From a virus (Duplodnaviria; Caudoviricetes): 39,870 nt of DNA. Position numbers and translations under genes: made by a program. The notes beneath the pieces were generated by a model, which saw nothing but the letters and a program-made list of their open reading frames with translations, was not told the DNA's origin and did not search any database. Shown here piece by piece: positions 18,101 to 39,545 of this stretch (its first letter is position 1; each line of letters starts with the position of its first letter). The stretch is taken from positions 1-39,870 of the IMG/VR virus record IMGVR_UViG_3300014656_000056; one strand, 5' to 3'.

Positions 18101-19789
18101 GCCGCGTGTGGAGTACCTGCAGGTACTGTACGAGTTGTTGGACTAGACACGGATAGGGATCTACTTGCTCCGACATATGACCCGCTAGATTGGTACGCAC
18201 GCTTTCCCCGGCTTACCGTTGTAGGTATGGTTCCGAGCGCAAACGACATAGCTAGTGTAGTTCAGAACGCCGCTGGTGATTTGATATTTACATTGACAGT
18301 TCCGCTAGTCAAGGACGTGGTTGAATTTGTATTTCCATACATACGAATTGGCGCGGCCGAGGAAACTGCTAGTATGTGGGTGGAGCTTGGTAAAGGCAGT
18401 AAATCAATCCATGGCATATTCGCGTGGGCAGAGGCATCCATAACCGTTCCAGTGAGTCATACGGGCGCGGCGGATAAGTTTTACATAGGTATTGATGACT
18501 TTTCGATTCCTAGTTTTCCTGGCGCGGACCTATCTCACGCGTTCTTTCGTAGGGGGTCCGAAGGGCACGACGTCTACTGCTGGCTTGACACTGGCGCGGG
18601 CACCTACCAACTGTTACTAACGGGCGGAGTAGCTACCGACTATAGTTTGAATCTATCGTTCCCTGGGTTTGCGTTATTGTCCAACTATGGAACTGTGCTT
18701 GAATGGGTCGATGGTTCCATATACGCACCAGCCGATGTAATTCGTGTGTACGCTGTAGTATGGATTCCGCCTAATTCCGATTACGGCGAACTGTTATTGC
18801 ACTATCAGGGTACCCCGTACATGGGTCTGTATTCTGCGTTAGGGTGGGACGAAGAGCGTTTTTATGGCAAAGTTGAAGCCGTTTCCGACGTGGTTTACAC
18901 TACGTATGGACCAGGTATGCGCCGATTCAACGACTATTCAGTAGTCGTAGCGAACCCGCAAATATACTCAGCTAGTGACGAGAGCTACTACCCAGCTATT
19001 TGTCCAATACTTACCTATGGTGCGGAACTGCGCTCTCCCGATTTCTACGATTTCGATAAGAGAATAGAATCTGATCTGTATTTCCACACGCCGCAGTACT
19101 ACGCACCAAACGCGACAACAGGTACGGCCGAATCATGGTATATTATAGGAGACCCAATAGCATGGGAAGATCTGGCAACAGAACAGTCTACTTCGCAAAT
19201 GATTTGCAGACAGAGAGCCGACGCATATCGAGGAGGACCATCTAATCTGGCCAACCCGTCTGATCGTGGTCGGCTACTTCAGCCCGGTATATTGATTCGT
19301 AAGCCTGCTGGATTTGATGCTACCCGCACGGCAGGAGAGGTAAATGCCGGGGCTACCCAAGGTATGCACTATACGTACACTACTGTAGCTAACACGTGGT
19401 TGACACGGCATATCGCTTCAATAATTCCAGGCGAATCTGACTGCACAGCAGACTACCGCCAATACCTGCAAGGCCAGGCGAGCTTGAGAACTACGGGGGA
19501 GCTTATAGGCTGGGGCTACGAAAATAGATACAACACCGTATCTGTGTCAACGCTGCTGCAGTACACGGAAACTAAGGGCATATCTTTGGTAGGTTATCTA
19601 CTCAACACCTTTGAGGAAGTGTATGGCGCGGGTAATGGTCAGCCGGGTCTCGTGTTTATTGTTTTCAGTGATAGGATTGTACCCACGGTCACAGTACCAA
19701 AATCGCCAGGTTGCGTTTTTGATAGCTGGTTTCCCCTGTACCGTCCAGTATTACCAGCCGATCATACGGTCTACCCGAGTACACTGTAA
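15137..19789 (+). CDS. Large virion protein, tail-fibre/baseplate-like (paralog A)
   Basis: ATG 15137 after GGAG, about 1550 aa, beta-rich. GSVANVAALP...DGDIYVV fibre-type motif. IPIALIHRRN...RPD...DDILDLR motif. Confidence 0.65.
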   Translation: MTLQAHLSWNSLDTTTFFNDRLRYRSFRGIFSGGLITPVAGALQIKVGDDDFGAVSHDGMVVWDEGGTPTTLNVGSAPAATTVLWVVCYAKYKALYPPTLAYQVLTDAQYAAHPEKDYLIALARLNMPPAAIDVQPSSIDYTVRDSLDRLGRHTFRGSVANVAALPTGTPTENRDGDIYVVVATHTMYYWNESTTAWLTYCGPSGPAATSISQFGENHKTRISVKSGVITDAYYATGTELGTFDGRALVVEQSTLAATVDIPNLCAVVNGHIVNTPYTRMVLGAAGGAETWDLIWLEVWRESVADPTAELFAPGAGPGQTFAQMSAKFEALTIAPTLSTSSVDVHAIDELGSAWATTKYQLRYASGITAAGYTSNVNAMLDPGVKNLGGNAFTYQGIQAAPHYLDTVWHAAYAAAYDGRSWAIPLFVIRRTPTEAGPANHIKWTRTDDGKQQIFEVYPRTQIDKNKTIEKAVDRSAGTRTNYDARGGTNEQWAQQTRLASGILSGHNLPIVGKLRTAALAANTVRIPAMTVSIHGNLLDIPETDVDLGTAPAGTKRRDLVILSLQYVKYPTGDHVYEPSDAPVAWKITDDEGSIYHLFLNYEVINALTTTDLFTAINGNATWDFSSKVVTDTNTDHGLLEAPTYADSAYRVINSIGVYGIPIALIHRRNSGNYDPDTNANGGGGGGAYGARPDVFTEAVIEKDDILDLRSYVVHRDGDLARLCDETMNRVMTGSLRTAMVPHPLIPDSAGVVHLYADSLTSGGAATAGYHLNSGAWDGARTIWSEAEENEVVAASFMLTPAAGGWEYIDPIIGTTPPAPIISMEWDGNPANPGVVTITAPVNAFLPLNASDSPIWVNGGFYYQNTIDIGNALTNLNAAFNGWGWAIMALDARGQALNVSVDIPGASCGAIFTATNRFFVGYTATYPRGYAGDADGYDANEGTYGTQDKLVRAYSDTLSTDIQVKPPIAYLRQDDVSGLTVTFTIGEIEAACGVPAGTVRVVGLDTDRDLLAPTYDPLDWYARFPRLTVVGMVPSANDIASVVQNAAGDLIFTLTVPLVKDVVEFVFPYIRIGAAEETASMWVELGKGSKSIHGIFAWAEASITVPVSHTGAADKFYIGIDDFSIPSFPGADLSHAFFRRGSEGHDVYCWLDTGAGTYQLLLTGGVATDYSLNLSFPGFALLSNYGTVLEWVDGSIYAPADVIRVYAVVWIPPNSDYGELLLHYQGTPYMGLYSALGWDEERFYGKVEAVSDVVYTTYGPGMRRFNDYSVVVANPQIYSASDESYYPAICPILTYGAELRSPDFYDFDKRIESDLYFHTPQYYAPNATTGTAESWYIIGDPIAWEDLATEQSTSQMICRQRADAYRGGPSNLANPSDRGRLLQPGILIRKPAGFDATRTAGEVNAGATQGMHYTYTTVANTWLTRHIASIIPGESDCTADYRQYLQGQASLRTTGELIGWGYENRYNTVSVSTLLQYTETKGISLVGYLLNTFEEVYGAGNGQPGLVFIVFSDRIVPTVTVPKSPGCVFDSWFPLYRPVLPADHTVYPSTL

Positions 19790-19798
19790 GGACAACAG

Positions 19799-22700
19799 AT
19801 GAATCGAGATAATACGTTTCTGCACTACGGCGCGTTAGACAAAACAGTCAATTGGAATTATCGTCTTAAGGATCGCTCCCAGATGGGAATGTTCATGGGC
19901 GGATTCCTAACCACGGTAGCAGCTGAGCTTAGAGTGCTGGTAGGTGGGGATGTTGGCGCGGTCAGCGCAGATGGTATGGTCGTACTAGACAATAGTACGT
20001 CAACCACTTCCTTGACTGTTACGGCAGGTACAACGCAATGGGTGGTGCTGTACGTTAAGTATCATGTAAATGCTGACCCGACTGTCGAATACGCTGTTTT
20101 TTCTGATGTTGTATACCAAGCACACGTAGACAAAGCGTTCATGATCGTACTGGCCAAGATCACTCTTGGTGGTGGTGCGGTAGATGTACAACCGGCCGAT
20201 ATAGACTACACTGTTCGTCACGACATCGATACAATCGGGCGGTCTCAATTTCGCGGCTGCGTAGCCAACACAGGATCATTACCGATTCCTACTCCAACAA
20301 CAAACAGAGATGCTGATATCTATTTTGTTGTTGCCGAAGAGGTTTTTTACTATTGGGATGGCACTGTGTGGCTGCCAACTAATACGTTATCCTCCGCAGC
20401 ACACATAGCGGAGGCGGTATTTCAATTCGGTCAAATTCAAGCAGAGAGGTCATTAGAGTCGTCCGGTCTGATAACGGATATATACGTGCAGGTAACCGCT
20501 CCTACGGAAGACGGAACCTTTGAGGGCAGAAATCACATCGTACAGCAACCAGCGATAGTTGACCAGGTAGATATTGCTAACGTATCCGCGTACATGCATG
20601 GACACTTTATTCATGTACCGTATGTGCAACTTACGTTGGCTGCGCAGCCAGCTCCTGCCGCTCCCGATAGATATGATGGAATTTGGATTGAAGCCTACAG
20701 AATAGAAGTAGCAGACCCTACGGCTTACACTTTTGCGGTAGCGAACGGCGCGGCCCTAACGTTTGCACAGATGCGCGAGTTGTTCGAACAGTTCGATAAT
20801 CACGCTCTGTTTTCAGCAAATTCTGTGTACATATCATCTATTGAATACATCGAAGACAAAAAGTATCTGGCTACTGTCTACGTGATAAACACGCAAAGTA
20901 GCGTTGGTATCGCGTCTGTGTATGATCAAGGCGCAACGATGATGGGCGCCGTTACTAATGTGGATGGGAATGCTTTTGCACAAACTAGCGCAAAGGCCGC
21001 GCCTTACCCAGGCGACACAAACATTTGGTACTCTGCTAGTGCCACTGCGTATGACGGTATTAGTTGGGGATTGCCTCTATACGTTATTCGGCGAACGGCA
21101 AACGAAGATTTCACGATCGCAAACGCAATCAAATGGTTCCGCGCAGATGACGGTATGCAACAGATATTCGAGGTGTATCCACGAGTACACTCCGACATAG
21201 CAAAATACCATTCCAGGGCTAGTGAGCGTTCTCACACCATCGACACAGCTTCAGATGTGTATGGTGGAACAAACGTTGCCTGGGCGGAGCAGTATCGCAC
21301 CGCGTCAGGCGTGCTACGTGGTATAAACGAACCTATAGTAGGAAAAGACGAAAGCGCTGTCAGCCCCGTTGCTGCTAACTCCATTCGTATTCCGGAGATG
21401 AGTGTAGCAATTCGCGGGCGTATTTTTGAGATTCCCGAAACAGACCTTAGTTTAGGCGTCGCCCCCGGCGCTGGGGCGGAACGGTCATTGGTAACTTTGG
21501 CTGCTGAGTTTGTCAAATATCCAGCTGCTGGGCATCTGTATGATGGGACCAGTGCTCCACGTGCTTGGTCCGTAACGGACGCTGAGGGGAATCTGTACTA
21601 CGCAGCGTTGCGCTATGTAGTGGATACATTTGATGTAGCGGCGGATGATGTAATTGACGTGTACGAGGCGGTTGACGCGCTCACGGATATCGATTGGGTT
21701 ACGGATATCGACCCAACTAAGCAATCCAACGCTGACGTCGGTCTATTACGCAAACCCACCAGCACCAATCCGGCAGTGTATGACACGTTGCTCCAGGTCC
21801 CGCTGGGTGACTCGTTCTACATTCCCATTTGTTTTGTGCATCGGCTGAATCAGGCCGCGTGGCATGTTACAACTAATCACAATGGTGGTTCCGGCAGACC
21901 AGATAGTTACGTGCACGATGTGATAGAAAAAGACTATATCCTCGATAGTAGACGCCTGGTGTGTCAAAACGAAGAAGACGTGCAAATGGTCGTGGAACAG
22001 TCCATGGAACGGCTGATGCAAGGGCGTCTGCGTACACAGATGGTACGCCATCCAGTACAGGACCCAGTTGCGGGTGTGCTACACACATACAACGATTGGA
22101 TAGCTGACGGGACGGCTGTGCCCGGTACCGCGTATGTCGAGCGTCCGGGAATCGTCGATGGGGTACGCTCTATCTGGTCGGAGGCCGAAGAATTGATGGT
22201 GCTGGCCACAACGTTTACTTTGACGTTCGTTGGGCCAAACTACGTTTACGCGTGCCCAGAGTTGAGCTACCTAGGCGCTCCGATAATATACATGGCGTGG
22301 GATGGCAATGTGTTAAACGACGCCATTCTGTCTATCACGGCACCAGTCAACTGTCACCTGGTATTGGACCCGATTACTGATGAGCCTGTATGGGTGAACA
22401 ATTCGTTCTTCGGAACAAAGGCTACGGCAGACATTGAATACCTTGAAGATCTGCTGCCATTTCTAACGGCGGGGTGGACCGCTGGTGGTCCGGACTCACG
22501 AGGCAATCGTAGGGCAGTACAGACCACGTTCGACAACCAGATTGTCACCAAAGCCACGTACACGTACAACCTGGCCTTTCTGGTTAAATACCCGCGAGGC
22601 TACACTGGTGACGCTGATAGTTACGACAACAATCGTGGTACATTCGGTAACCAGGACAAGCTCATATCCGTTAATAGTACGAATTTATTCGGCGATGTTG

Positions 22701-24475
22701 GGGTAACTCCACGCATTGCTGAAATTTCAAAGGTCGTACTCGGCTCTCCGACTGCGGTTAGTGCTGCCGAGATAACAGCGGCTGCCGGAATAGCTTCGGA
22801 TTTCATGGGTATCCCTATCGGTGTAGATTCTATTCCGGATGTTAGAGGCGAGCCGCTTGACACGTCGGTAAAATATCCACGTATCAACAAAACTGGATCC
22901 ACACGAGCATCCTACACACCCACTGTTAGTAAGACCATCGCTACTGGAGACCTATCAGTAACGCACCCTGCCGGAGCATCAACATTCGAACTTGTGTTCC
23001 CCTACACACCCGTAGCAGCGTTAGGTCCCTACACCGATGTATGGGCGGAGCTAGGACGCGCGTCGAAAGCCTTTCAGGGGTATTTTGGATGGGCAAAATG
23101 CGTAGTCACTCTACCAGCAGCTTGGGTATCTGGAAACGAAGTTTACTTGGATATGTCACGATTCGTTACCAATCACAACATAGACCTTAGTCACGCGTTT
23201 TTCAGGCGCGGATTGTACGGTGCCGACGTTTATTTGTGGTACGATGACCCAGCTACTCCCGGAGATCGCCTCTTGGCCAATTCGACACAGGTACAAATAG
23301 ATTGGGATTTCCCTTGGGCGCCCGGACCACCGGAGTTGCCGGTTAACTACGGCACGATTATGCCCCTGGTTATCACAGAGGGTACCATGGTTCCTGGAAC
23401 GACGCAAATAGAGGTATGGGCGATCGTTTGTATACCACCAGAAAGTACTGAAAACATAGCGATAACGTATCAAGGTACGCCGTATCAGGGGTCGTCCAAT
23501 ACAGGCGCCTTGCTGGCTAATACCGCAGCCACTGAGGAGCATTTCTTTGGGCAGGTACGTGCCGTCTCTGATATGTACGTAACCTCTCAAGGGTCGGGCG
23601 TTCAACGACATGGATCCTACATAACTGTTGGCGCACATTTTATAGATACGCACCAATACGTAGGGCAATACAAAGGTATAAATCCAGCTTTGACGTACAT
23701 GCCTCGACTCGGATCGGCTAGTTTCAGAGATTTTGACATGTATGACGAAGGTGCTGTTTTTTGGCATACGCCGCAAATAGATCCAATATCGGTTGACGAT
23801 GCAATAGACCCATGGGACATCAAAGGTCAAACGTTGGTGTGGACAAATCTAAGCGAGGTAGGAGTTACTACTACGCGTTTCAAGCTGGACGGTTACAGGT
23901 ACAGTTCGACGGATGATGTATTTAGATCCCATGCTGACATTTTAAAGGCGGGTTTGGTACTGACAAAACCTGATATGTATGCGCTGGACACGTGGTCTAG
24001 TTTTGGGTGGATCAACGGGGATCCCACCATCGGTATTTATCAGGGTAAGTTTTTTGCGCACAACGTGTTGGTATCAGGTACACCCGCAGGGCGAAGAGTG
24101 CGCGATATAGCCGTTCCCATCCCACAGTACCTGGGTCACATGGTGAATTGGTTGAACCTAACTGGTTTGCATTCTATCAACAATGCCACGGATAATCTGT
24201 ACGGGTTTGACGGTGAGACCCGGGTGCGTCATGTGAGCGCCTCTCCGCATCAAACTACGTTGGTATCCACACCAGGTATTACACTAGTCGGGTATGTTGT
24301 AAAGACCAATGAGAGTGCCGCGTCTCCTCGGATAACGGAGAAGGGTAATTTGATGTTGGTCGTATTTTCTGATTTCGATAACACATCTGCAAGGGTTGGA
24401 TCCGCGTTTGACGTATTCTATCCATTGTACAACCCTGTGTTACCACTATACCCAGAAACGGGCCCATCGTATTAA
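19799..24475 (+). CDS. Large virion protein, tail-fibre/baseplate-like (paralog B)
   Basis: 1558 aa, collinear with paralog A end to end (GAVSxDGMVV, QQIFEVYPR, DLSHAFFRRG, YQGTPY, PLYxPVLP). Confidence 0.65.
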   Translation: MNRDNTFLHYGALDKTVNWNYRLKDRSQMGMFMGGFLTTVAAELRVLVGGDVGAVSADGMVVLDNSTSTTSLTVTAGTTQWVVLYVKYHVNADPTVEYAVFSDVVYQAHVDKAFMIVLAKITLGGGAVDVQPADIDYTVRHDIDTIGRSQFRGCVANTGSLPIPTPTTNRDADIYFVVAEEVFYYWDGTVWLPTNTLSSAAHIAEAVFQFGQIQAERSLESSGLITDIYVQVTAPTEDGTFEGRNHIVQQPAIVDQVDIANVSAYMHGHFIHVPYVQLTLAAQPAPAAPDRYDGIWIEAYRIEVADPTAYTFAVANGAALTFAQMRELFEQFDNHALFSANSVYISSIEYIEDKKYLATVYVINTQSSVGIASVYDQGATMMGAVTNVDGNAFAQTSAKAAPYPGDTNIWYSASATAYDGISWGLPLYVIRRTANEDFTIANAIKWFRADDGMQQIFEVYPRVHSDIAKYHSRASERSHTIDTASDVYGGTNVAWAEQYRTASGVLRGINEPIVGKDESAVSPVAANSIRIPEMSVAIRGRIFEIPETDLSLGVAPGAGAERSLVTLAAEFVKYPAAGHLYDGTSAPRAWSVTDAEGNLYYAALRYVVDTFDVAADDVIDVYEAVDALTDIDWVTDIDPTKQSNADVGLLRKPTSTNPAVYDTLLQVPLGDSFYIPICFVHRLNQAAWHVTTNHNGGSGRPDSYVHDVIEKDYILDSRRLVCQNEEDVQMVVEQSMERLMQGRLRTQMVRHPVQDPVAGVLHTYNDWIADGTAVPGTAYVERPGIVDGVRSIWSEAEELMVLATTFTLTFVGPNYVYACPELSYLGAPIIYMAWDGNVLNDAILSITAPVNCHLVLDPITDEPVWVNNSFFGTKATADIEYLEDLLPFLTAGWTAGGPDSRGNRRAVQTTFDNQIVTKATYTYNLAFLVKYPRGYTGDADSYDNNRGTFGNQDKLISVNSTNLFGDVGVTPRIAEISKVVLGSPTAVSAAEITAAAGIASDFMGIPIGVDSIPDVRGEPLDTSVKYPRINKTGSTRASYTPTVSKTIATGDLSVTHPAGASTFELVFPYTPVAALGPYTDVWAELGRASKAFQGYFGWAKCVVTLPAAWVSGNEVYLDMSRFVTNHNIDLSHAFFRRGLYGADVYLWYDDPATPGDRLLANSTQVQIDWDFPWAPGPPELPVNYGTIMPLVITEGTMVPGTTQIEVWAIVCIPPESTENIAITYQGTPYQGSSNTGALLANTAATEEHFFGQVRAVSDMYVTSQGSGVQRHGSYITVGAHFIDTHQYVGQYKGINPALTYMPRLGSASFRDFDMYDEGAVFWHTPQIDPISVDDAIDPWDIKGQTLVWTNLSEVGVTTTRFKLDGYRYSSTDDVFRSHADILKAGLVLTKPDMYALDTWSSFGWINGDPTIGIYQGKFFAHNVLVSGTPAGRRVRDIAVPIPQYLGHMVNWLNLTGLHSINNATDNLYGFDGETRVRHVSASPHQTTLVSTPGITLVGYVVKTNESAASPRITEKGNLMLVVFSDFDNTSARVGSAFDVFYPLYNPVLPLYPETGPSY

Positions 24476-24484
24476 GAGGAACCA

Positions 24485-25468
24485 ATGGCTGATTTTTATA
24501 GATTGAACGTAGCAGTAAGCTCGCACCAGGGTATTTTGGACGCAATCGAGGCGTTCGTTATATCGGCGGCTCCAGGTCCAGCGTGGACAGCTGCCGCTAT
24601 GGGGCCTGGGGAGGCTTTCTTCGAAACATCCGGAGTTACCAAGTGCTACCCATACCTGTGGACTACAGGCGCTAATCGCATGGTGCATGCTGGGCTGACT
24701 ACTTGTAGTGCGGCTACGTCTGGGTTCGCTGGCGCGACGGTAACTACTGCTACGCTAAACGCCGCCGAAGACGAGGGCTACTACGGCATGGGGCTGTGGT
24801 ACAATGCCAGTGGGACGAAGGTTACCGGCAACAAAGCTGTGATGCACTTCTTCGGCAACGAAGACCGTGTAATAATCCTCCTCAGAAACGAGTTTGGCGG
24901 TGCACACCAGATGCTGTATTTGGGTCTGTACACCCCGCATTGCGCAGCCTTGGATGATACATGTCCGCAGATAGTAGTTGGTAATTCTCCTGCAATGATA
25001 TATATGACGGAGCTAACATCATCGTCAGCGGCACAGTACAGCGTGCCTATCTACAACACATCTACTCCGGAAGAGCACTGGATGTCGTTTCCATTTGGTG
25101 TACTAAAAAGTTCTCCGCTAACGATGAGTACGCAGCCGGAACGTAGGTATTATGTGAAACAGCGGTTCGCGAATTTACGTCCCGAAGATGCGTTTTGTGC
25201 ATCGCCGGACGTAACGGCGAATATACCGCTCAACAATAGAGCCGCACCCACAGAGCTATTTTTCTATCAACAGTATCTGATGTTTGCCGAGAATGGTCGT
25301 GGAGAGGGGGCTACGCTGGATGGCATCTTCCGCTCAAGTGACGATCAAGCACTGGAAAGTACTATAACTGTAGGAGCGGACGACTACTTCATTTGGCCTA
25401 CGTCACTCCAGCCATCTGCGCGGCCGCGTGTGTTCGCTATTGGACCAATGGGTACAATCGTTCCATAA
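24485..25468 (+). CDS. Probable tail-associated structural protein
   Basis: GAGGA RBS. Follows the fibre-like genes. C-terminal LDGIF...ESTITVGADDY pattern resembles phage tail-associated proteins. Confidence 0.55.
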   Translation: MADFYRLNVAVSSHQGILDAIEAFVISAAPGPAWTAAAMGPGEAFFETSGVTKCYPYLWTTGANRMVHAGLTTCSAATSGFAGATVTTATLNAAEDEGYYGMGLWYNASGTKVTGNKAVMHFFGNEDRVIILLRNEFGGAHQMLYLGLYTPHCAALDDTCPQIVVGNSPAMIYMTELTSSSAAQYSVPIYNTSTPEEHWMSFPFGVLKSSPLTMSTQPERRYYVKQRFANLRPEDAFCASPDVTANIPLNNRAAPTELFFYQQYLMFAENGRGEGATLDGIFRSSDDQALESTITVGADDYFIWPTSLQPSARPRVFAIGPMGTIVP

Positions 25469-25481
25469 GGTGAGGGTAATT

Positions 25482-26501
25482 ATGTCAACTAAACTATGGC
25501 TAAAAGAGATCACTGCTGTAACCGACGCAGAAATAGTGATATCAGAAATTCTACACGATGTCGAAAGCAACATAATTCGGATGGTGCGGCAGGTGCGCAA
25601 GCATATTTCCGAAATGGATAAAAAGGAAATGCGCGAGCTACTCGTAGCCGCCAACAGCGCCAAGAAACACGGTACTGGTACACGCAAGTTAGCTGCCAAG
25701 ATCATGGTTGCCACGATAGATGGCGTCTTGCGCAAGAGCGGGGATAACCCCGATGAGAGCACCAATAACGACGAATCTACGGATGATACCGACAAGGATG
25801 AGAAGGATCAAAGCAAAGATACATCGGAAGATGAAGACCGCGCGGAGGACACTGAAGACGTGTCCGATTCCGAAGATGCGGAAGAAGGCGAGGACACCGA
25901 GGACACCGATTCGGAATCCGATGATAGGGATAAGTCTGAGGACGATGATACTGATTCGATGAGCGACACTGAGGATGACACGTCAGATGACGGAGACGAC
26001 TCCGATAATGAGTCCAAGGATGATGGAGACACTTCTGAAGACGAAGATGGGGGTACGTCGGACGATGAAACCTCCGAGGATGAGGATGAGGAAGAGGAAG
26101 ACGAGGAGGAAGACGAGGAGCCCGATCCTGAGTTGACTGACGAAGAAATAGAAATGTTCAAAGGCATTAACATAGATGAGGACATTCTACAGGCGAAGGG
26201 TATAACCAACCTGTTAGCCAAGGCTGGCCTAGATGGGACCTACATATTCCCTAACGCAGCGGTAGCAATGGGCGCGTTGAAAGAGGTTATCGGGACATAC
26301 CTCCGCTACGAGATAGTAGCTGGCGCTGACGATCCGTTTCCCGGACCGTTCGGGCACGAAATGGTGAAACTTTCGAGCAGTATGGGTTTGGCCTATGCCT
26401 GGAAGTGGTGTGAACTTACGGATACCGCGTACACAGGAAGCGGCATAATGGTTCACGCTAGTGTGAGCAATCTCGTACCAAACGTAGCTACAAAGATATG
26501 A
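25482..26501 (+). CDS. Highly acidic protein
   Basis: ATG 25482 after GAGG. About 135-aa D/E/S/T tract between two compact regions. VHASV near the C-terminus. Confidence 0.7.
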   Translation: MSTKLWLKEITAVTDAEIVISEILHDVESNIIRMVRQVRKHISEMDKKEMRELLVAANSAKKHGTGTRKLAAKIMVATIDGVLRKSGDNPDESTNNDESTDDTDKDEKDQSKDTSEDEDRAEDTEDVSDSEDAEEGEDTEDTDSESDDRDKSEDDDTDSMSDTEDDTSDDGDDSDNESKDDGDTSEDEDGGTSDDETSEDEDEEEEDEEEDEEPDPELTDEEIEMFKGINIDEDILQAKGITNLLAKAGLDGTYIFPNAAVAMGALKEVIGTYLRYEIVAGADDPFPGPFGHEMVKLSSSMGLAYAWKWCELTDTAYTGSGIMVHASVSNLVPNVATKI

Positions 26502-26948: not shown

Positions 26949-29900
26949 ATGGGAAAAGCAGCCATTGTGGCGGATAAGTCTTCGCGCGTCCTACGTCGTG
27001 AGCCAATAGATTCCGACCTGTGCAATATGTGTGGACTGTGTAACACTGTGCAGACCCACTATGTGCCTACCGAGCATGGGCGCAAGAGGCCGCGTGTGCT
27101 TATCGTAGGAGAAGCGCCCGGACAGAGCGAGGACGAAGAAGGTAAGCCGTTTGTCGGGGACGCCGGAAAACTACTACGTAAGGCGGTTGAGCGCGCGTAT
27201 GGTGGTGAGGACTACGTAGCCTACGCAAGTATAGTACGTTGCCGCCCTACCAACGATGACGGCGCTAACCGTAAGCCAATGGCAACGGAGGCTCGCCGTT
27301 GCGTACGTTATCTGCACAAAGACATACAACGCTTGCAGCCAAAAGTAATCGTGGCGCTCGGCGCAACGGCGTTACTGTATCTAACCGGCAAAAGTGGTGG
27401 CATTTTTAAAAACCGTGGCTCGCGTACCAACATCTTCGTCGGAGGCCAAAAGTACGTAGTTGTCTCCGCGCTCCACCCAGCCTACGTAGCTAACACGCAC
27501 GCGGCGTTTAATCTTCTGGTGTCCGACCTTAGAAAAGCGCATTGGGGTGACCCGCACGAAGGGGAAACTGTAGAGCTGTTGACCACGTTGAAAGACGTGC
27601 GCCGCATGGTACGCCATTACTTATCTGAGGAGTGCAACGTCGGGTTAGGTTTCGACATAGAAACCTATAATCTGAACAAACGGCATGGCAATCCCGTAAT
27701 CACTTTGCAGTTTTGCAACGGCAAACAAAGCTACGTCATTGCGCTGAATCATCCGGAGAGCCCGTTTGATACAGAGGTAAAGCGCAGAAAAGTAATCAAT
27801 CTGATTCGTCCGCTGTTCGAAACAAAAGATCCCGCGTTCAAGTTCATGCTAGGGCACAATATGCAGTTTGACTACCAAGGCGTTATGCGCCTTGGAATAA
27901 AAGTCAATGTGCCGATGGTATGCACTATCCTAACCATGCACATGATAGACGACAATAGAAAAAGTAGAAACGTATCGAACTCGATGCGGCCCTACTCGTT
28001 GGCCGTCTTAGCAGAAGAAATACTGGGTAGAAATAAATACCTGGACGCAGGTATAATAGGAAAGGTCAACGACCTCGTCAACCAGCCTTTGGATATGGTT
28101 ACCAAGTACGGCGGTAACGACGCTTTACTGACACGCGAACTGTTCTTGGAACAAGTGCGCATGGCGGAAAGGCAAAAATACAAAAAGAAATTCATGGGGC
28201 TGGTAAAGCACCTTGTACCACGTACAGTAACTGTGCTAGCTACTATGGAATACAGCGGGTTTCCGATTGATATGGAAGCCCTCGGTACCATGCACGATCC
28301 AAAGACATCGGCGATTCAAAAACGAATAGCTGAGATAACGGATACATTAAAAACGCTGGACACCGTACAACAGGCAAACAAGAAACTGGTAAAGCTCGAA
28401 ACTGGTGGTATGACTGGTCTGTTTTACACGCCGTACATATTCGATATCAACAAACGTTCTCACGCGGGTATGTTGTTTTTTGATTCGCTTAAACTAGCTC
28501 CTGTAGCAGATACGAAAAAGAAAGATGACTCCATTATGGAGTTCAATCCAGGTGATGGAAAGATACCTACAGTAGCTAAAGTATTTCAAGCGCATTACGA
28601 ACGAGAAACGTGGAGGCCTCCGGTCGATGTACCAAGTACTAAACGCTATGATGTAGAGGTGCAGATACCCGGTAAAGAAGGGATCTATTATAAGTACCCC
28701 GAAATTGGATTGTTTTCTGAATTCAAGGGGCTGATGCAATGCCAACGTACGTTTGTAAATGGTATCTGGAACTGCACGCATCCGGATTCTCCTCAATTCA
28801 GTCCCGATCACGTCGACGGTAGGGTGCGTGCTTCATTCACCGGGTACAACACAGTTACTGGCCGTACCAGCAGTAAGGATCCAGTAAACAACCAAAACAT
28901 TCCTCGTGGCGACTCCCCAGTAAAGAAATCAATCAAAAATCTATTCACTGCGCTTCCCAATTGCTGGCTGGTGAACGTTGACTTTGCCACTGCAGAGGTT
29001 CGCTGGTTAGCTATTATGGCTAAGGACGTGCGGTTATGTGAAGCGTTTTGGGCAGGCCACAAAGCACACAAAGCTTATCTGAAAGACCCCACCAACGCAG
29101 AGCTGCGAAAGATGGCAGCTATCGCTGGCGACATCCACATGCAGACCGCCTCACTTTTTCATCAAAAAGAAGTGTGGGATGTTACAAAGGCGGAACGACA
29201 AGACACCAAAACTATTGTATTTGGTTTAATCTACGGGCGCGGAGCGCGAGCCATTGCGCAGCAACTAGGCATAGAGGTAGATGAAGCCGAAGAGCTGATC
29301 GCACGTTTCTCCTCCCTGTACCCGGAGGCTTGGGAGTGCATAGCGTTCCTGGAAAGGAAAGCGCGCCGTTGCGGTTTTGTTGATTCCCCCATTGGTAGGC
29401 GCAGACGGCTGGATTGGTACTACGAAGACCCCCATGCGCGCGGACGTATGAAAGAGGGCGATAGGCGCGCTAGAAACAGCCCCATTCAGGCGATCGCGTC
29501 CGATGCAAACAACCTGGCGATAGCTGAAATCATAAATTTCGTGACTGAAAAGAAATTGAAGTGGACTTTTCACAATATCGTGCACGATTCGTTGATCATG
29601 TCGATTCCCAAGTCGTACGATTTGTACAAGAGCCTACGCCAGATAGAATGGTTCTATTCACATCGACTGAAGAAGATACTTACCGAGGACTTCAAGGTGG
29701 TTCTAAACGCGCCGCTAGCGGTTGACTTTGATATCGGACTACGTTGGGGTGACCTGAAGGGCTGGGACGGCACAGAAGAACACCTAGGTGCGGTAACTGG
29801 CGCGGCTGAGATACTCGGCGAAGCCTACGAAACGCGCCGGGCAGTCGACGTCAAAAGCTTACAAAAACATATCGCGGCAGGTATCGATTCGTTGATAGCG

Positions 29901-30071
29901 GCAAAGGATTACCGAACATGCGATAAATTGATGTCTGATTTGGACGCGTATCGCCCAACTCCAGAAACAACAACAGGTATGATCAAGAAACTTTCGAAAG
30001 TAAAAGATCAGCTCCCTAGTTGGGATAAAGCTATTGTTAGAATGAACCAAGAAATGCGCGCTTTCGCGTAA
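26949..30071 (+). CDS. polA: Family A DNA polymerase with 3'-5' exonuclease and N-terminal family-4 uracil-DNA glycosylase-like (Fe-S) domain
   Basis: UDG: CNMC, GEAPG, PFVG, CRP, HPAY. Exonuclease: FDIET, GHNMQFD, YGGND. Polymerase: TGRTSS..NQNIPR, motif A DFATAEVR, motif B RQDTKTIVFGLIYG, motif C VHDS. Confidence 0.95.
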   Translation: MGKAAIVADKSSRVLRREPIDSDLCNMCGLCNTVQTHYVPTEHGRKRPRVLIVGEAPGQSEDEEGKPFVGDAGKLLRKAVERAYGGEDYVAYASIVRCRPTNDDGANRKPMATEARRCVRYLHKDIQRLQPKVIVALGATALLYLTGKSGGIFKNRGSRTNIFVGGQKYVVVSALHPAYVANTHAAFNLLVSDLRKAHWGDPHEGETVELLTTLKDVRRMVRHYLSEECNVGLGFDIETYNLNKRHGNPVITLQFCNGKQSYVIALNHPESPFDTEVKRRKVINLIRPLFETKDPAFKFMLGHNMQFDYQGVMRLGIKVNVPMVCTILTMHMIDDNRKSRNVSNSMRPYSLAVLAEEILGRNKYLDAGIIGKVNDLVNQPLDMVTKYGGNDALLTRELFLEQVRMAERQKYKKKFMGLVKHLVPRTVTVLATMEYSGFPIDMEALGTMHDPKTSAIQKRIAEITDTLKTLDTVQQANKKLVKLETGGMTGLFYTPYIFDINKRSHAGMLFFDSLKLAPVADTKKKDDSIMEFNPGDGKIPTVAKVFQAHYERETWRPPVDVPSTKRYDVEVQIPGKEGIYYKYPEIGLFSEFKGLMQCQRTFVNGIWNCTHPDSPQFSPDHVDGRVRASFTGYNTVTGRTSSKDPVNNQNIPRGDSPVKKSIKNLFTALPNCWLVNVDFATAEVRWLAIMAKDVRLCEAFWAGHKAHKAYLKDPTNAELRKMAAIAGDIHMQTASLFHQKEVWDVTKAERQDTKTIVFGLIYGRGARAIAQQLGIEVDEAEELIARFSSLYPEAWECIAFLERKARRCGFVDSPIGRRRRLDWYYEDPHARGRMKEGDRRARNSPIQAIASDANNLAIAEIINFVTEKKLKWTFHNIVHDSLIMSIPKSYDLYKSLRQIEWFYSHRLKKILTEDFKVVLNAPLAVDFDIGLRWGDLKGWDGTEEHLGAVTGAAEILGEAYETRRAVDVKSLQKHIAAGIDSLIAAKDYRTCDKLMSDLDAYRPTPETTTGMIKKLSKVKDQLPSWDKAIVRMNQEMRAFA

Positions 30072-30488: not shown

Positions 30489-31037
30489 ATGCGGTTTTTA
30501 CTATGCGTCGTTTCTGTTTTTATCTTATCCATACTTCTTGTTCCCACTAAACTGACGTATACCAGTACAAAAACCGCACCCTACGATATAGAGGTATTCG
30601 CCTCCTGGCAGTATGTTGGTACGTATGTGGAGGACCTTACACCACTAGCAAAATCCTACGAAACACAAGGGTACGAACTTATAATTCCGATCAAGCACTC
30701 GAATAAACCAGAATTCATTCATTCGTTATGGGTGAACTCGGATAGAACAATCAACGCTTTTTGGACGTTTAATTTGAATACGCAGCGTTTGATAAGTGTT
30801 TGTTTGTTTTTTGAAACGGAAGAGGGTTACGACGAATACTTGGACTGGTTTTCAAAGCAGCCTGTGATAGTCATGGAGCATCCAACCCACGAGAGAGCAA
30901 ATGCGGATCTACTCATCGTTAGAAACAAGTATTTCGAAGACGATGACGACGCGGAACCTGTGTGGATGGTACAAGCACGATCCGAGAAACTCATACAGGT
31001 AGTTACTCCGGACGATGATTGGTTTTCCAAAGAATAA
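30489..31037 (+). CDS. Secreted or membrane-anchored hypothetical protein
   Basis: GGAGG RBS. N-terminal hydrophobic signal/anchor MRFLLCVVSVFILSILLV. Confidence 0.65.
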   Translation: MRFLLCVVSVFILSILLVPTKLTYTSTKTAPYDIEVFASWQYVGTYVEDLTPLAKSYETQGYELIIPIKHSNKPEFIHSLWVNSDRTINAFWTFNLNTQRLISVCLFFETEEGYDEYLDWFSKQPVIVMEHPTHERANADLLIVRNKYFEDDDDAEPVWMVQARSEKLIQVVTPDDDWFSKE

Positions 31038-32226: not shown

Positions 32227-32532
32227 TTGAGCTTCATCAGCTACTACGCCAAACGCAGCGGCCGCAGCATGCTTGAGCTGGCGGGCCCCAAAGACGAATT
32301 AGGCTTTCGCAACTTCTACAGACACTCGGGACACGGTGGCCAACCAAAACTCGTGCGCCTGTGTTCCAAGTGCTTGAAGGCTGGGTACACGTGTCCGAAT
32401 AATGACATTTGGAGCGACCGCTACAGCACAAATTCGTGCATTCGTTGTCCGCATTGTTTCGAAACGTTCGATTACGATGACATGGATATACGCAAAGAGT
32501 ACCGTAGAGTACGAGAGGTATCAGATGCTTGA
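32227..32532 (+). CDS. Small Zn-finger protein
   Basis: GGAG RBS before TTG. CSKC...CP...CIRCPHC. Confidence 0.6.
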   Translation: MSFISYYAKRSGRSMLELAGPKDELGFRNFYRHSGHGGQPKLVRLCSKCLKAGYTCPNNDIWSDRYSTNSCIRCPHCFETFDYDDMDIRKEYRRVREVSDA

Positions 32533-33472
32533 TTATATCGACCCCAAAGTCTACGCGCATAAAATCATCTACGATTTTGTAGACGGCATTCAAGGCGCCA
32601 TGCAGGAGAAAAACATCTCTGTCGAGAGTGTGGCCGCGCATATGGGCATAACTGCAAAATCAGTCAAACGCCTGTTGGAATCCATGACTCTGTCTCCGCG
32701 CACTATGGTTCGCCTAGCACAAGCTGTCGGTATGGGCGTGAGTTTCGTACCCTATGAAAGCCCAGATGGTTTTCCGCTCTTTGCCGAGCTGTTCACTGAT
32801 GCCTGGAAGGCGGTAGGAATGCCCGTAGACGGGTTTGACCGCTACCACAACCTCCCAGGCACATACATAGCGTTGGAAGGCCCTGACCTGGCAGGAAAGA
32901 CCGCGCAGATGGATAGACTGGAGCAGTGGCTCATCGAGGACGACATTCCATACTTACGCGTTGCCGAGCCCAGCTATGACGGTATTGGTGCTCTCATTCG
33001 CACATTGATCCGGACAGGAGAAACAAACGAGCGCAGCATTTCTATGCTGTACGCCGCTGATAGACTTGACCTGTGGGAACGTAAAATAGAACCAGCGCTT
33101 CGCGAAGGTAAGGTAGTTATTTCTGATCGCTGTTTTCTTTCGTCGATGGTGTACCAGGGGTCTGCCCTTGGCAACGAGTGGACGCGCTTTGTAAACTCGC
33201 ACATGACGTATCCGGACCTGATAGTTATTCTGGATATATCTCCGCAGGCTGCGCTTGCTAGGTTAGCCGTGAGAGGGGATGGAGAAGAGGCGGTTTACGA
33301 AAGAAAAGAGGCTATCGAAAATGCATGTGCACTGTACGCAGGCGGTAAGTACGGTGAGTGCTTTCACGTTGACGTGACAGGGGTAGAGTGGGTAAACGCG
33401 GAGCAAACTACTTTTGCTGTGTTTGAAGACATCAAAAAACGGATAGGCAGCAACCAACGGATCAAATTCTAG
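32525..33472 (+). CDS. tmk: Thymidylate (dTMP) kinase with N-terminal XRE-type HTH domain
   Basis: ATG 32525 after GAGG. HTH: MQEKNISVESVAAHMGITAKSVKRLL...TMVRLAQAVG. Kinase: IALEGPDLAGKT, DRCFLSSMVYQG, PDLIVILD. Confidence 0.88.
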   Translation: MLDYIDPKVYAHKIIYDFVDGIQGAMQEKNISVESVAAHMGITAKSVKRLLESMTLSPRTMVRLAQAVGMGVSFVPYESPDGFPLFAELFTDAWKAVGMPVDGFDRYHNLPGTYIALEGPDLAGKTAQMDRLEQWLIEDDIPYLRVAEPSYDGIGALIRTLIRTGETNERSISMLYAADRLDLWERKIEPALREGKVVISDRCFLSSMVYQGSALGNEWTRFVNSHMTYPDLIVILDISPQAALARLAVRGDGEEAVYERKEAIENACALYAGGKYGECFHVDVTGVEWVNAEQTTFAVFEDIKKRIGSNQRIKF

Positions 33473-34360: not shown

Positions 34361-34801
34361 ATGAACTATCAGGGCAGCTTGGACAAAAAAGACAAGGAGT
34401 GGAGTAAGCGAACACCTACGATTTTCGATCTGATGCCTCGCATTGAGTGCCACATCTGCGCGCAAATCCTCTCAGCTAAAAGGCGGAGATGTGATCACTT
34501 CGCCCTGTGCTCTGCAATGACTATGGGCGGGTGTGGCGGTCATCAGGTGGTCATAGCTGACTTATCGGATGTCAATGTCATAGGTGCTCTAATCTTCCAG
34601 TGTGACGACAACTCGGAAGTTGCAAACCTGTTAGCGCTTGGTTTCGCGCAGGCAAAGTCCGACGCAGATAAAGAAATAGTGTGCCGTTCTGTGCGGCCAT
34701 ACGCGCTTAAGCTGGCGAACGAAGACGTGCAGGAATTTGTAGTAGACTTTTGGGTGCGCTGGAAAGATAGCGAAAAACTCAGAATTTTTAACGGTAGGTG
34801 A
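34361..34801 (+). CDS. Cys-rich hypothetical protein (true start possibly 34310 across an in-frame TAG)
   Basis: CHIC...CDH...C...C. GTGA overlap with the next gene. Confidence 0.55.
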   Translation: MNYQGSLDKKDKEWSKRTPTIFDLMPRIECHICAQILSAKRRRCDHFALCSAMTMGGCGGHQVVIADLSDVNVIGALIFQCDDNSEVANLLALGFAQAKSDADKEIVCRSVRPYALKLANEDVQEFVVDFWVRWKDSEKLRIFNGR

Positions 34802-36969
34802 ACATGTACGAAATACCATATACAGGAAACCTCTCCTGGCTGGTGGACAACACCATTCTATACGTTCGACACGGGAGCCACGCCTACGGGCTAAATGGTC
34901 CGGGATCGGACGAAGATTTCAAAGGTGTAGCTATCCCGCCAATGAGATACTTTCTCGGATTTTCAAAGCGGTTCGATCAAACAGAAATAAAAACGGATAT
35001 GATAGATGCGACAATCTATGGTATCAAAAAGTTTTTCAAACTGGCGTCTGAATGCAATCCGAATATCATTGAAACTTTGTGGGTGGAACCGGAAGATCAA
35101 ATGTTGGTCACGCAGGTAGGGGAGCGGCTGATAGATATACGCGAAGAATTTCTATCAAAACGAGCATTGCATACTTTCACGGGGTATGCGATGAGTCAGC
35201 TCAAAAGAATCAAGTTGCACCGTCGATGGTTGCTTGAGCCTCCCACACACCAACCAACTAGGTGCGAGTTTGGTTTACCAGACAAGCCGGTAATGAAGCA
35301 AAATCAGATGGACGCCGCACTGTCCATGATATCAAAAAAAGTCGATAACTGGGAAATGAATCTACAGGATTTCAATCCGCCGCAACGACAATTTATCATG
35401 GATCTATTCGGGAAAATACTTTCGGAAATGAGCGTCAATCAAAATGAAAAGTGGCGCCGAGCCGCTGACCTGATGGGTTTCGAAAGTAATTTTTTGCAAG
35501 TATTGGAAAAAGAAAAACAGTACCGTTACGCTAGAAATGAATGGCGTAGTTTTCAGAATTGGAAAAAGAATAGAAACCCGGCTCGGGCTGCGAAAGAGGC
35601 GAAGTTTGGCTACGATTGTTACACCGATGATACGGAGTTTTTAACCGACAATGGTTGGAAACACTATGACGATATCACCGAAGGTGACCAACTCGCTACT
35701 GTGTATTTGGGCGACGCAACGCAGCGTAAATATCTAGGGATTGAGTATCAATCGTTTGTAGATCGGTATGAAGCCAACTACTCGGGCCCTCTGTATTCTT
35801 TTCGGGCGTATCATTTTGACGTCACCGTTACCCCCAATCACAGAATGCTATACCGCTACGTATCCAGAAAGAATAACAAAGCAGATACCAACGTTCAGTT
35901 TGGGCAGGCCGCAACGGTCCCGGATAGTTTTGAGTTTATCAGGCGGGTGTCTCCAAGAACGCATGCATTCCGGCAGAAAGATGTATTTGAAGGAATTCCG
36001 CTTCCATCGGCAGCGTACCTGACTCTAATGGGTTGGTATTTGTCTGATGGTTGTATGATGTTCAACGCCGCTGGTAAGCCAAAAGCAATCCGAATATCGC
36101 AGAAAGTGGGCGCAAAGCTGGCTTGGAAGATGGGACGCTTCGCATCAGATCACAAAAACAAAATATCAATATCTATAGCGACTTACCTTCAAAAACCAAC
36201 TGCGTGGCGTCCCTATGAAATTGATGAACGTGTGATGATTGCCTACGGCAAAGAATTCGCCCTCAGGATGTTTAACGATTGTGGTGCGTTGAAAGACAAA
36301 CACATCCCGCGCTGGGCATTTGGACTTACTAAACGTTTGCTGGAAAAGCTACTTTATGCGTTGATTGATGGTGACGGAACGGATCGTAAGAACGGCTCAT
36401 TTGTGTACTACGCATCACTTAAACAGCTGGCCGACGATGTACAAGAAGCCGCTTTATTCGCGGGTTGGGAAACTTCATTGAATGGCCCTTACGGCCCATA
36501 TGAGAGTAATCCTGAAGCTCCGCCTATGTATCAAGTACACCTACGTCCAAACGTTTCTCAGTTCAAGCGCCTGGTTCGGGGTACAAATGTGACTAAACGC
36601 GCGGTAACTGATCAGAGAATCGTGTGTTTTACAGTACCTAATGAAACGTTGATTGTTCGAAAAAACGGGTACATAGGTGTGCATGGAAATTCAAAGCACG
36701 CATTACACCTAGTTCGGTTATTATGTTCTGCAGAGGAAGTACTTACAACCGGTAAAGTGATCGTGAAGCGGCCAAACCGCGACGAGCTTCTGTCAGTTTT
36801 GAATGGAGAATGGAAGTACGAAGAGTTGATAGAATGGGCTGCGACAAAAGAGGCGGCTGCAGTGGCGGCAGCAAAAGTATCCAAGTTGCCTCACGGGGCG
36901 GATCAGTACGCGCTAGACGCATACTGTCAGTGGCTTGTGTCCTCCCACGAGAGGCAGCGTAATGCGTAA
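34798..36969 (+). CDS. Pol-beta superfamily nucleotidyltransferase (RlaP/Nuc-transf-like), intein-interrupted
   Basis: HGSHAYG...SDEDFKG catalytic signature, CNPNIIE, and a GYD|SKHALHLVRLL motif restored after removing the intein (about 365 aa spliced). Confidence 0.88.
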   Translation: MNMYEIPYTGNLSWLVDNTILYVRHGSHAYGLNGPGSDEDFKGVAIPPMRYFLGFSKRFDQTEIKTDMIDATIYGIKKFFKLASECNPNIIETLWVEPEDQMLVTQVGERLIDIREEFLSKRALHTFTGYAMSQLKRIKLHRRWLLEPPTHQPTRCEFGLPDKPVMKQNQMDAALSMISKKVDNWEMNLQDFNPPQRQFIMDLFGKILSEMSVNQNEKWRRAADLMGFESNFLQVLEKEKQYRYARNEWRSFQNWKKNRNPARAAKEAKFGYDCYTDDTEFLTDNGWKHYDDITEGDQLATVYLGDATQRKYLGIEYQSFVDRYEANYSGPLYSFRAYHFDVTVTPNHRMLYRYVSRKNNKADTNVQFGQAATVPDSFEFIRRVSPRTHAFRQKDVFEGIPLPSAAYLTLMGWYLSDGCMMFNAAGKPKAIRISQKVGAKLAWKMGRFASDHKNKISISIATYLQKPTAWRPYEIDERVMIAYGKEFALRMFNDCGALKDKHIPRWAFGLTKRLLEKLLYALIDGDGTDRKNGSFVYYASLKQLADDVQEAALFAGWETSLNGPYGPYESNPEAPPMYQVHLRPNVSQFKRLVRGTNVTKRAVTDQRIVCFTVPNETLIVRKNGYIGVHGNSKHALHLVRLLCSAEEVLTTGKVIVKRPNRDELLSVLNGEWKYEELIEWAATKEAAAVAAAKVSKLPHGADQYALDAYCQWLVSSHERQRNA
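35617..36690 (+). mobile_element. Intein (358 aa) with LAGLIDADG homing endonuclease
   Basis: Block A CYTDDTEFLTDNGWK, block B VTPNHRM, LAGLIDADG motifs LMGWYLSDG and LYALIDGDG, block F VCFTVPNETL, terminal HGN followed by +1 Ser. Confidence 0.93.
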
Positions 36970-37530: not shown

Positions 37531-37823
37531 ATATGCAATACGTGCAACTCCTTTGTGGTTTGCGCACTCATAGAAATACTGGGAGTCTAGAAATGGACAC
37601 CAGGATTCATGAAGCGCTGCAAGAGTGCGTATATTGCGGCAGTAATTATGACGTACAGCCTCATTGGTCTCACACAGCATATTGCTGGGACGGTAAGGGA
37701 TGGGATCCTAACGGACCTACGTGGCTGTGCCCTGCGTGTAGACTGCAGGATGATGATTACTGGAACGAGATGTGGAACGACGCTTACGGAGGGATTTGCG
37801 AATACATGTCGACCACCTCTTAG
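37527..37823 (+). CDS. Small Zn-finger protein (start 37527 or 37593)
   Basis: ECVYCG...LCPACR...YWNEMW. Confidence 0.55.
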   Translation: MNMQYVQLLCGLRTHRNTGSLEMDTRIHEALQECVYCGSNYDVQPHWSHTAYCWDGKGWDPNGPTWLCPACRLQDDDYWNEMWNDAYGGICEYMSTTS

Positions 37824-38077
37824 CGCCCTTTCTCCTGGAAACCGAACAGGCTACTGAAGCTATAATTATGCAAACCATGCATGATAGGCTGGCTGCCTGC
37901 GTGGCGGACGGTCACATGATCGATACGTCTTTGAATTACTATGGAAATCGTATTCCGGAGGTCGTTACGACGTTGCGCCGGTGGACGTCTTGTGGTATAT
38001 TGAGTGTGGACAGCGCTCTTTTGTTTCGGGTGACATGCGCAAGTGCGTTGCAAATAATTCAGTCTAGTTACGAATAG
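37772..38077 (+). CDS. Hypothetical protein (start uncertain)
   Basis: Fills the gap on the coding strand and ends 4 nt before the next ATG. Confidence 0.4.
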   Translation: MERRLRRDLRIHVDHLLAPFLLETEQATEAIIMQTMHDRLAACVADGHMIDTSLNYYGNRIPEVVTTLRRWTSCGILSVDSALLFRVTCASALQIIQSSYE

Positions 38078-38081
38078 AGAT

Positions 38082-38294
38082 ATGATGGAAAAGGCAGTTA
38101 TAGCCCTCTACGGCGCTGGAACCAAGATCGATGAATTCGAAGCGCGTCTCAAAGATAAGGGCTTTGTAGTTCGTCGATTTTTGAACTCACCGTATTCGGA
38201 CGCCACTACCACGCTGTTTCACGGTATGCGGGTGTACACTGACGAGGGCGTTGATCGTCACATGTCCAGAATCGCGCCGAGAAAGGACGAGTAA
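38082..38294 (+). CDS. Hypothetical protein
   Basis: 70-aa ORF in a tightly packed array. Confidence 0.5.
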   Translation: MMEKAVIALYGAGTKIDEFEARLKDKGFVVRRFLNSPYSDATTTLFHGMRVYTDEGVDRHMSRIAPRKDE

Positions 38295-38632: not shown

Positions 38633-39038
38633 CAAAGGAAAAGAAACTATGATAAACGCACAAGTCCAAGGGGTATTCGCAATAACGGTTAGCTTAGTTA
38701 TGGTGGTGACGCATTTTACGGTGTTATCCTGTTACTACACGTCGCCCAATCTAGCAACCATACTCGTGGTAGCTTTTTGGTGCTCCCTGGTTGCTGGGGC
38801 GGCGCTTGGTGCTATCATCACTCGTAGTAAACACTCTGCGATACCTCGGTTAGAAAGCATTACCACGGAGGATGCAATAACGTGGCAATTTGTGGGAGAC
38901 GCGCTAATACAAGAACAGTGGGCAAATTTACACGAGTACGGATCAGATCCGCTTGCGTACGATGCACGGAGAGACGATATCGTAGATATCCAAAATAAGT
39001 GGAAAGACGTGCAGACATTTCTTAGAGGTACATCATGA
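38607..39038 (+). CDS. Membrane protein with two predicted TM helices (start 38607 or 38649)
   Basis: Hydrophobic GVFAITVSLVMVVTHFTVL and LATILVVAFWCSLVAGAALGAII. Confidence 0.6.
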   Translation: MGHKNKRGNKGKETMINAQVQGVFAITVSLVMVVTHFTVLSCYYTSPNLATILVVAFWCSLVAGAALGAIITRSKHSAIPRLESITTEDAITWQFVGDALIQEQWANLHEYGSDPLAYDARRDDIVDIQNKWKDVQTFLRGTS

Positions 39039-39253
39039 ATTGGAAGTGGATAGTAGTTATCGTTCTGATAATCGCGGGTTTGATCACGGTAATAGCTCTG
39101 GATGAAGTACGTAGTGCAGAATGCAATCAAGACTGTGACCAAGCCTGCGTAGAACTGGGTATGCAGTACGGTAGGTGTGACAGTTATGATAAATCGGGGG
39201 AGTCGTGCGTGTGCGGTATAGATCGCCCACCGAAAGGATACAATGAGAATTAA
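39035..39253 (+). CDS. Exported/anchored peptide with CS-alpha-beta (defensin-like) cysteine motif
   Basis: N-terminal hydrophobic segment, then C-x3-C-x3-C-x7-G-x-C-x9-C-x-C. GAGG RBS and ATGA overlap. Confidence 0.6.
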   Translation: MNWKWIVVIVLIIAGLITVIALDEVRSAECNQDCDQACVELGMQYGRCDSYDKSGESCVCGIDRPPKGYNEN

Positions 39254-39545
39254 ACTGAAATTATCAGACGCAGAACGCATGGCGTTGGGGCACCACCTCG
39301 CGCAGGGCTATGGTAATTATGCATCACAGGATGACGCCAACGCCTGGGCGGAAACGTTGATCTCCTCGGCGATGGATGACGTTATAGACGCGTTCACGAA
39401 CGCCGTCGAGATAGAAACTGTTCTCAAAACCGATACCACAAAGTTTTTTGTATTGTGTCCGGAGTGCGTTCATGGTATGAGTGAAGGTTGCGTGCTAGAG
39501 TTGACACCAACGGACGCCTGCGAGTGGTTTGAACCTATACCGTGA
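39243..39545 (+). CDS. Hypothetical protein with C-terminal Cys cluster
   Basis: AAGGA RBS. CPECVH...C...ACEWF. Confidence 0.6.
   Translation: MRIKLKLSDAERMALGHHLAQGYGNYASQDDANAWAETLISSAMDDVIDAFTNAVEIETVLKTDTTKFFVLCPECVHGMSEGCVLELTPTDACEWFEPIP

Follow-up and report, generated by a model that had tools for sequence, protein, structure and literature searches.

Defensins of the cysteine-stabilised alpha-beta (CS-alpha-beta) kind, or cis-defensins, occur in eukaryotes and in a small number of bacterial groups; how they originated is under debate, bacterial members that are not antimicrobial have no settled function, and the same fold also scaffolds enzyme inhibitors and receptor ligands (PMC11561630). 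Described bacterial representatives include the corallosins and xanthusin-1 of classes I–II (PMC11561630) and the actifensins (PMC12284004). In the main text of PMC11561630, the words "virus" and "phage" each occur 0 times. The papers drawn on also include PMC7677548 and PMC6024312. Here, we describe P0001, a 72-residue protein encoded in a 39,870-nucleotide stretch of tailed-phage DNA (the window; IMG/VR record IMGVR_UViG_3300014656_000056). P0001 is a probable variant within the CS-alpha-beta kind and probably belongs neither to the lipid II-binding defensins nor to the channel toxins or the Spackle proteins of phage T4.

The assignment starts from the cysteine spacing. Translation of 39035–39253 places Cys residues at positions 30, 34, 38, 48, 58, and 60, with G46-R47 preceding C48, just as an earlier, sequence-only reading of this DNA had described. 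This C..CxxxC..C..CxC array matches the published CS-alpha-beta filter, CX(2,18)CX3CX(2,12)CX(4,17)CXC (PMC11561630), and contains the GxC gamma-core (G46-R47-C48). Among the 327 open reading frames (ORFs) of 30–130 residues in the window, P0001 is the sole filter match. When residues 23–72 were shuffled 500,000 times, the filter was matched in 1,100 cases (0.22%), and filter plus GxC in 95 (0.019%). Furthermore, 150 simulated windows (77,995 ORFs) yielded four loose matches and one strict match, and none that combined the pattern with a hydrophobic N-terminus.

Structure prediction, proposed in the earlier reading as a check, gave one helix and a beta-hairpin in the CS-alpha-beta layout in both single-sequence models of P0001 (predicted local distance difference test, pLDDT, 64.5 and 79.5). 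In these models, CxxxC lies on the helix and CxC on the last hairpin strand; disulfides C30–C48, C34–C58, and C38–C60 would be expected from the family and are not read from a model. The closest Pfam model was Toxin_3 (PF00537; E 0.005–0.009, 16.7–17.6 bits vs. a curated cut-off of 21.5), aligned over profile positions 19–48 of 55. AtLURE1.2–PRK6 was among the sub-threshold fold matches, and the Protein Data Bank (PDB) search also matched the Zn2Cys6 protein Leu3 (E 0.37–1.1). PHROGs gave matches at E 0.17–0.32 only, and NCBIfam none. In the Atlas, the whole protein matched unnamed clusters of 77–78-residue viral and bacterial proteins with feature scores of 0.78–0.84 (bar of the tool, 0.9), and the core alone had no usable feature match; unnamed clusters of 70–80-residue viral and bacterial proteins reached template modelling (TM) scores of 0.68–0.70. 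BFVD held no match at E≤0.001, its best row being an unnamed 80-residue protein (E 1.7, TM 0.54).

Three points limit the CS-alpha-beta assignment. The family and fold matches mostly point to this superfamily, but all are sub-threshold and none is significant alone; the null for the cysteine pattern was simulated DNA and not real Cys-rich phage proteins; and, by a rough product estimate, scanning ~250,000 windows would turn up such patterns by the tens, most of them in non-coding frames. Both models and the mostly agreeing weak matches support the defensin fold claimed in the sequence-only reading. On this evidence, we consider the predicted helix-on-hairpin fold of P0001 likely. Alternatively, P0001 could be a genuine membrane protein with a Cys-rich domain that only looks like a defensin, either another fold held by disulfides or metal or a small alpha/beta module that arose by convergence. 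The sub-threshold scores, the Leu3 match, and the wealth of small Cys proteins in this phage, with CxxC in seven of 13 surveyed genes, fit such a look-alike. P0001 itself, however, contains no CxxC, several methods agree on one superfamily, and the combination with a hydrophobic N-terminus was absent from the simulated ORFs, which makes the look-alike rather unlikely.

As a predicted CS-alpha-beta protein, P0001 shares with the class I–II bacterial cis-defensins and the actifensins a signal-like N-terminus, the six-Cys filter, GxC, and a short n-loop (PMC11561630; PMC12284004), and with classes II–IV acidic residues before the first Cys. Unlike these proteins, it is phage-encoded and has a strongly acidic core, a 9-residue hairpin spacing, a 12-residue C-terminal tail, and an 18-residue segment of unusual hydrophobicity that might be retained as an anchor, and no sequence homology to them is detectable. 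Compared with plant and insect CS-alpha-beta defensins (PDFL2.1, Ah-AMP1, heliomicin/ARD1, the Art v 1 domain, AtLURE1.2), P0001 is acidic and lacks a fourth disulfide, and the scores are not significant. The core, C-x3-C-x9-C-x9-C-x-C, aligns without gaps to the long-chain scorpion toxins of PF00537, with equal C34–C60 spacing; these toxins, however, have eight Cys and a fourth disulfide, whereas P0001 has six Cys, no fourth disulfide, and a score below the curated cut-off. It is this likeness that could suggest a released, scorpion-type channel ligand aimed at eukaryotes that graze on the host. Such a role is very improbable, given that the match covers only part of the profile and that P0001 lacks both the rest of a long-chain toxin and the KCxN found in the gamma-core of alpha-KTx potassium-channel toxins (PMC5116183).

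The composition of P0001 bears on a second defensin activity. Residues 23–72 hold 11 D/E vs. 5 K/R, as the earlier reading had counted, and no His; the mature part has a net charge of −6 and an isoelectric point (pI) of ~4.2, and the core contains two Tyr and two basic residues. Defensins that bind lipid II have a GXGCP or XTCD start and a His before the third Cys (PMC12284004), and P0001 has none of these. A plectasin- or actifensin-like defensin that targets bacteria or their cell wall through lipid II, slowing host wall synthesis or killing neighbours, would share the predicted fold and the gamma-core; bacterial actifensin does bind lipid II (PMC12284004). Lipid II is exposed at the periplasmic face of the inner membrane. 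The missing motifs and the strongly acidic core with its few Tyr and basic residues nevertheless leave this role improbable, and the cell-wall interference through lipid II that the earlier reading had listed among the possible functions is disfavoured. More generally, the acidity, together with the lack of GXGCP/XTCD, of the helix His, and of KCxN, makes membrane or lipid II attack unlikely.

The predicted domain follows an uncharged, very hydrophobic run of 18 residues, W5–L22, in agreement with the segment seen earlier at about residues 5–22. One Lys stands ahead of it and D23, E24, R26, and E29 behind, and this distribution favours an N-in/C-out topology. Judging from the segment and the flanking charges, P0001 is very likely exported. 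Candidate (−3,−1) cleavage sites lie after A21 (V-I-A) and after S27 (V-R-S); two residues would precede the first Cys if cleavage fell after S27, which is the arrangement of bacterial defensins of class I, and the length of W5–L22 fits an uncleaved anchor equally well, so that cleavage and retention are evenly balanced. Since the bacterial survey dropped proteins with predicted transmembrane segments (PMC11561630), anchored defensins would have escaped it. A lipoprotein was rejected: S-A-E ahead of C30 is no lipobox.

An exported acidic domain finds its closest functional analogies in small phage proteins that act in the periplasm by protein binding, T4 Spackle (gp61.3) and the antiholin RI. 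Spackle contains disulfide bonds and attaches to a basic patch of the tail lysozyme of T4; RI is periplasmic, has a cleavable signal, and binds the holin (PMC8385771). The likeness ends there, as Spackle is an alpha-helical bundle, P0001 models as one helix plus a hairpin, and neither sequence nor fold matches. In the mechanism we propose, the hydrophobic start would send the six-Cys domain into the host periplasm, where the host oxidation system, assuming a diderm host, would form the three disulfides. The domain could then bind and block a protein target, for example the basic cell-wall hydrolase of a second phage or its entry machinery, and so protect the infected cell. We propose a protein-binding inhibitor because acidity and motifs disfavour lipid II, the fold serves inhibitors elsewhere, and phages export guards such as Spackle and RI. 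As a periplasmic inhibitor for superinfection exclusion or envelope protection, P0001 is a tentative candidate; were the fold granted, this role would have an even chance, and a Spackle-like lysozyme as its specific target would be doubtful. The receptor blocking or superinfection exclusion put forward in the earlier reading is a plausible role. No target gene was recognised in the window.

Two further roles share the periplasmic location. P0001 might time lysis like RI, a periplasmic protein with a cleavable signal (PMC8385771), by restraining a holin, the candidate being the two-helix membrane protein encoded directly upstream. That gene is coupled to P0001 through an ATGA overlap, and its product faintly matches Phage_holin_3_6 (E 0.026). 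The match, however, scores 15 bits vs. a cut-off of 28.4 and a permease match is just as weak, the protein seems to expose no more than a short loop between its helices, and no endolysin was recognised nearby; an antiholin therefore appears unlikely. Slightly less likely still is a metal-binding peptide of defensin fold that chelates or buffers periplasmic metal ions through its acidic surface. Its charge and pI would suit chelation, which is a listed cis-defensin activity (PMC11561630; PMC5569111), but residues 23–72 offer no His, the Cys would be engaged in disulfides, and no metal-handling genes were recognised nearby.

Whatever its function, P0001 is a real orphan phage gene (Table 1). Its frame has a codon-usage score of 0.137, and the remaining five frames score −0.058 or lower, an open antisense frame included; public collections likewise list P0001 as a predicted gene. 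An antisense ORF of 181 residues (38735–39280) was ruled out as the gene by the codon score across this stretch. The start of P0001 overlaps the stop of the upstream gene, and the downstream gene starts 11 nucleotides inside P0001, so that the DNA of the P0001 tail doubles as ribosome-binding site (39234–39238) and start of its neighbour. In this downstream gene, five of six strain differences fall on third codon positions, which argues that the gene array is coding. A near-identical record (L001) and sequence runs X2 and X3 carry the strain variant of P0001, which has a single base change (I17T; 99% identical), and selection on P0001 is not readable from this single non-synonymous change. Promoter-like sites showed no excess (12 found vs. 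12.2 expected), a transfer RNA (tRNA) scan found no tRNA genes, and no RNA dataset was among the sequence runs listed with the sampled words.

Table 1. Features of P0001 and its immediate neighbours in the window.
Feature	Coordinates	Strand	Basis
P0001, 72-residue ORF, ATG to TAA	39035..39253	+	translation, codon score, gene calls in public collections
Shine-Dalgarno-like GAGGT, ATG 5 nucleotides further on	39025..39029	+	sequence
Hydrophobic segment W5–L22, signal peptide or type II anchor	39047..39100	+	charge and hydrophobicity
Six-Cys core C30–C60: predicted helix 32/34–40, hairpin 45/47–52 and 55/57–61	39122..39214	+	two models, weak fold matches
12-residue C-terminal tail of P0001, low model confidence	39215..39250	+	
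Upstream 129-residue protein with two hydrophobic segments, ATGA overlap with P0001; candidate partner	38649..39038	+	
Downstream 100-residue acidic gene, overlaps end of P0001	39243..39545	+	

Relatives of P0001 beyond the 99% identical variant were absent from all collections searched; public viral DNA was not scanned for the cysteine spacing, so diverged relatives may exist. A word-index search returned only P0001 itself, with 12 candidates among longer proteins and none of them at E≤10. HMMER against 1.84 billion representatives found P0001 and four long proteins, whose scores added up from weak matches to repeats (TPR, Ig-like, and others) and which were dropped. IMG/VR held one locus, 99% identical, and metagenomes held two, namely the window's own contig and the variant. 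GTDB genomes contained no relative, 50,697 annotated phages gave no match at E≤10 with either the whole protein or the core, and six plasmid matches at E 8–9 were ignored. Similarly, P0001 had no match in any of five capsid-related cultured phages. PF00537 matched none of four cultured phages, its sole match being the record of L001 itself; in control genomes, it matched at E≤1 in seven of 14, never above the cut-off. Phage or viral defensins were not reported in the titles or abstract openings of the literature searched, a scope that excludes supplements and subscription papers.

The phage origin assumed for P0001 is borne out by tailed-phage genes in the window and by relatives of the capsid protein. 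On the + strand lie genes for terminase (434–2485), portal, head protease, and major capsid protein, as well as a family A polymerase fused to a uracil-DNA glycosylase (UDG), a thymidylate kinase, and a nucleotidyltransferase. The capsid protein shares ~30% identity with its counterparts in PaBG, Motura, and Erwinia jumbo-type phages; all 96 records stay below 60%, and the hosts that they name are Gram-negative. In the search for a host, the best relatives of a phosphoesterase are 35–42% identical and spread over many phyla; a search with the thymidylate kinase gave one unnamed 38% match besides itself. CheckV rates the near-identical 29,603-nucleotide record (L001/G001) as 8% complete, which by rough arithmetic suggests a genome of ~370 kb, and the phage is probably very large (jumbo). 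Four sequence runs each contained at least half of the sampled words; three of them carry a groundwater metagenome label, and one of these may be the run from which the window derives. Synteny searches by capsid, polymerase, and one downstream gene returned only this phage or nothing.

P0001 sits at the right end of the window in a run of small genes without assigned function. Relative to the window, the sister strain L001 lacks 141 nucleotides (37794–37934) where the genes 37527 and 37820 meet, as well as 25 nucleotides (38211–38235) within 38082–38294, a frameshift; these deletions among the neighbours of P0001 indicate that the small-gene cluster is variable. Past the window end, L001 carries an ORF of at least 467 residues (6219–7619, +) with no Pfam or NCBIfam match.

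Several other + strand genes have distinct features. The tandem paralogues of ~1,550 residues at 15137–19789 and 19799–24475, 37% identical over their full length and without Pfam match, probably represent a new kind of virion or tail protein. The polymerase (26949–30071) has its UDG-like domain at the N-terminus, and the thymidylate kinase (32402–33472) an N-terminal Cro/C1-type helix-turn-helix domain. The nucleotidyltransferase (34798–36969) is RlaP-type (PF10127, phrog_388) and is interrupted at about residues 274–631 by an apparent intein, judged from its motifs (a Cys start and a His-Gly-Asn end before Ser) and weak PHROG matches. Proteins with long Asp/Glu-rich tracts are encoded at 25428–26501 and 5644–7638, the latter in scaffold position between the protease and capsid genes. 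Finally, 30489–31037 encodes a probably exported protein of 182 residues (net −13) with an N-terminal hydrophobic segment, two Cys, and no family match.

P0001, with a domain of ~35 residues, is so far a lone orphan of an uncultured phage. We regard it as possible, though rather speculative, that P0001 is the first phage-encoded CS-alpha-beta protein, a three-disulfide envelope inhibitor in phage–phage conflict, perhaps within a dispersed set of 70–80-residue viral and bacterial proteins too diverged for sequence searches. If true, a phage-borne acidic and possibly anchored cis-defensin would add viruses to the carriers of this fold, and periplasmic protein inhibition would become a concrete hypothesis for the non-cationic prokaryotic defensins. 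Cis-defensins would then extend to bacterial viruses, and envelope conflict, as opposed to killing, would be indicated as a prokaryotic use of the fold.
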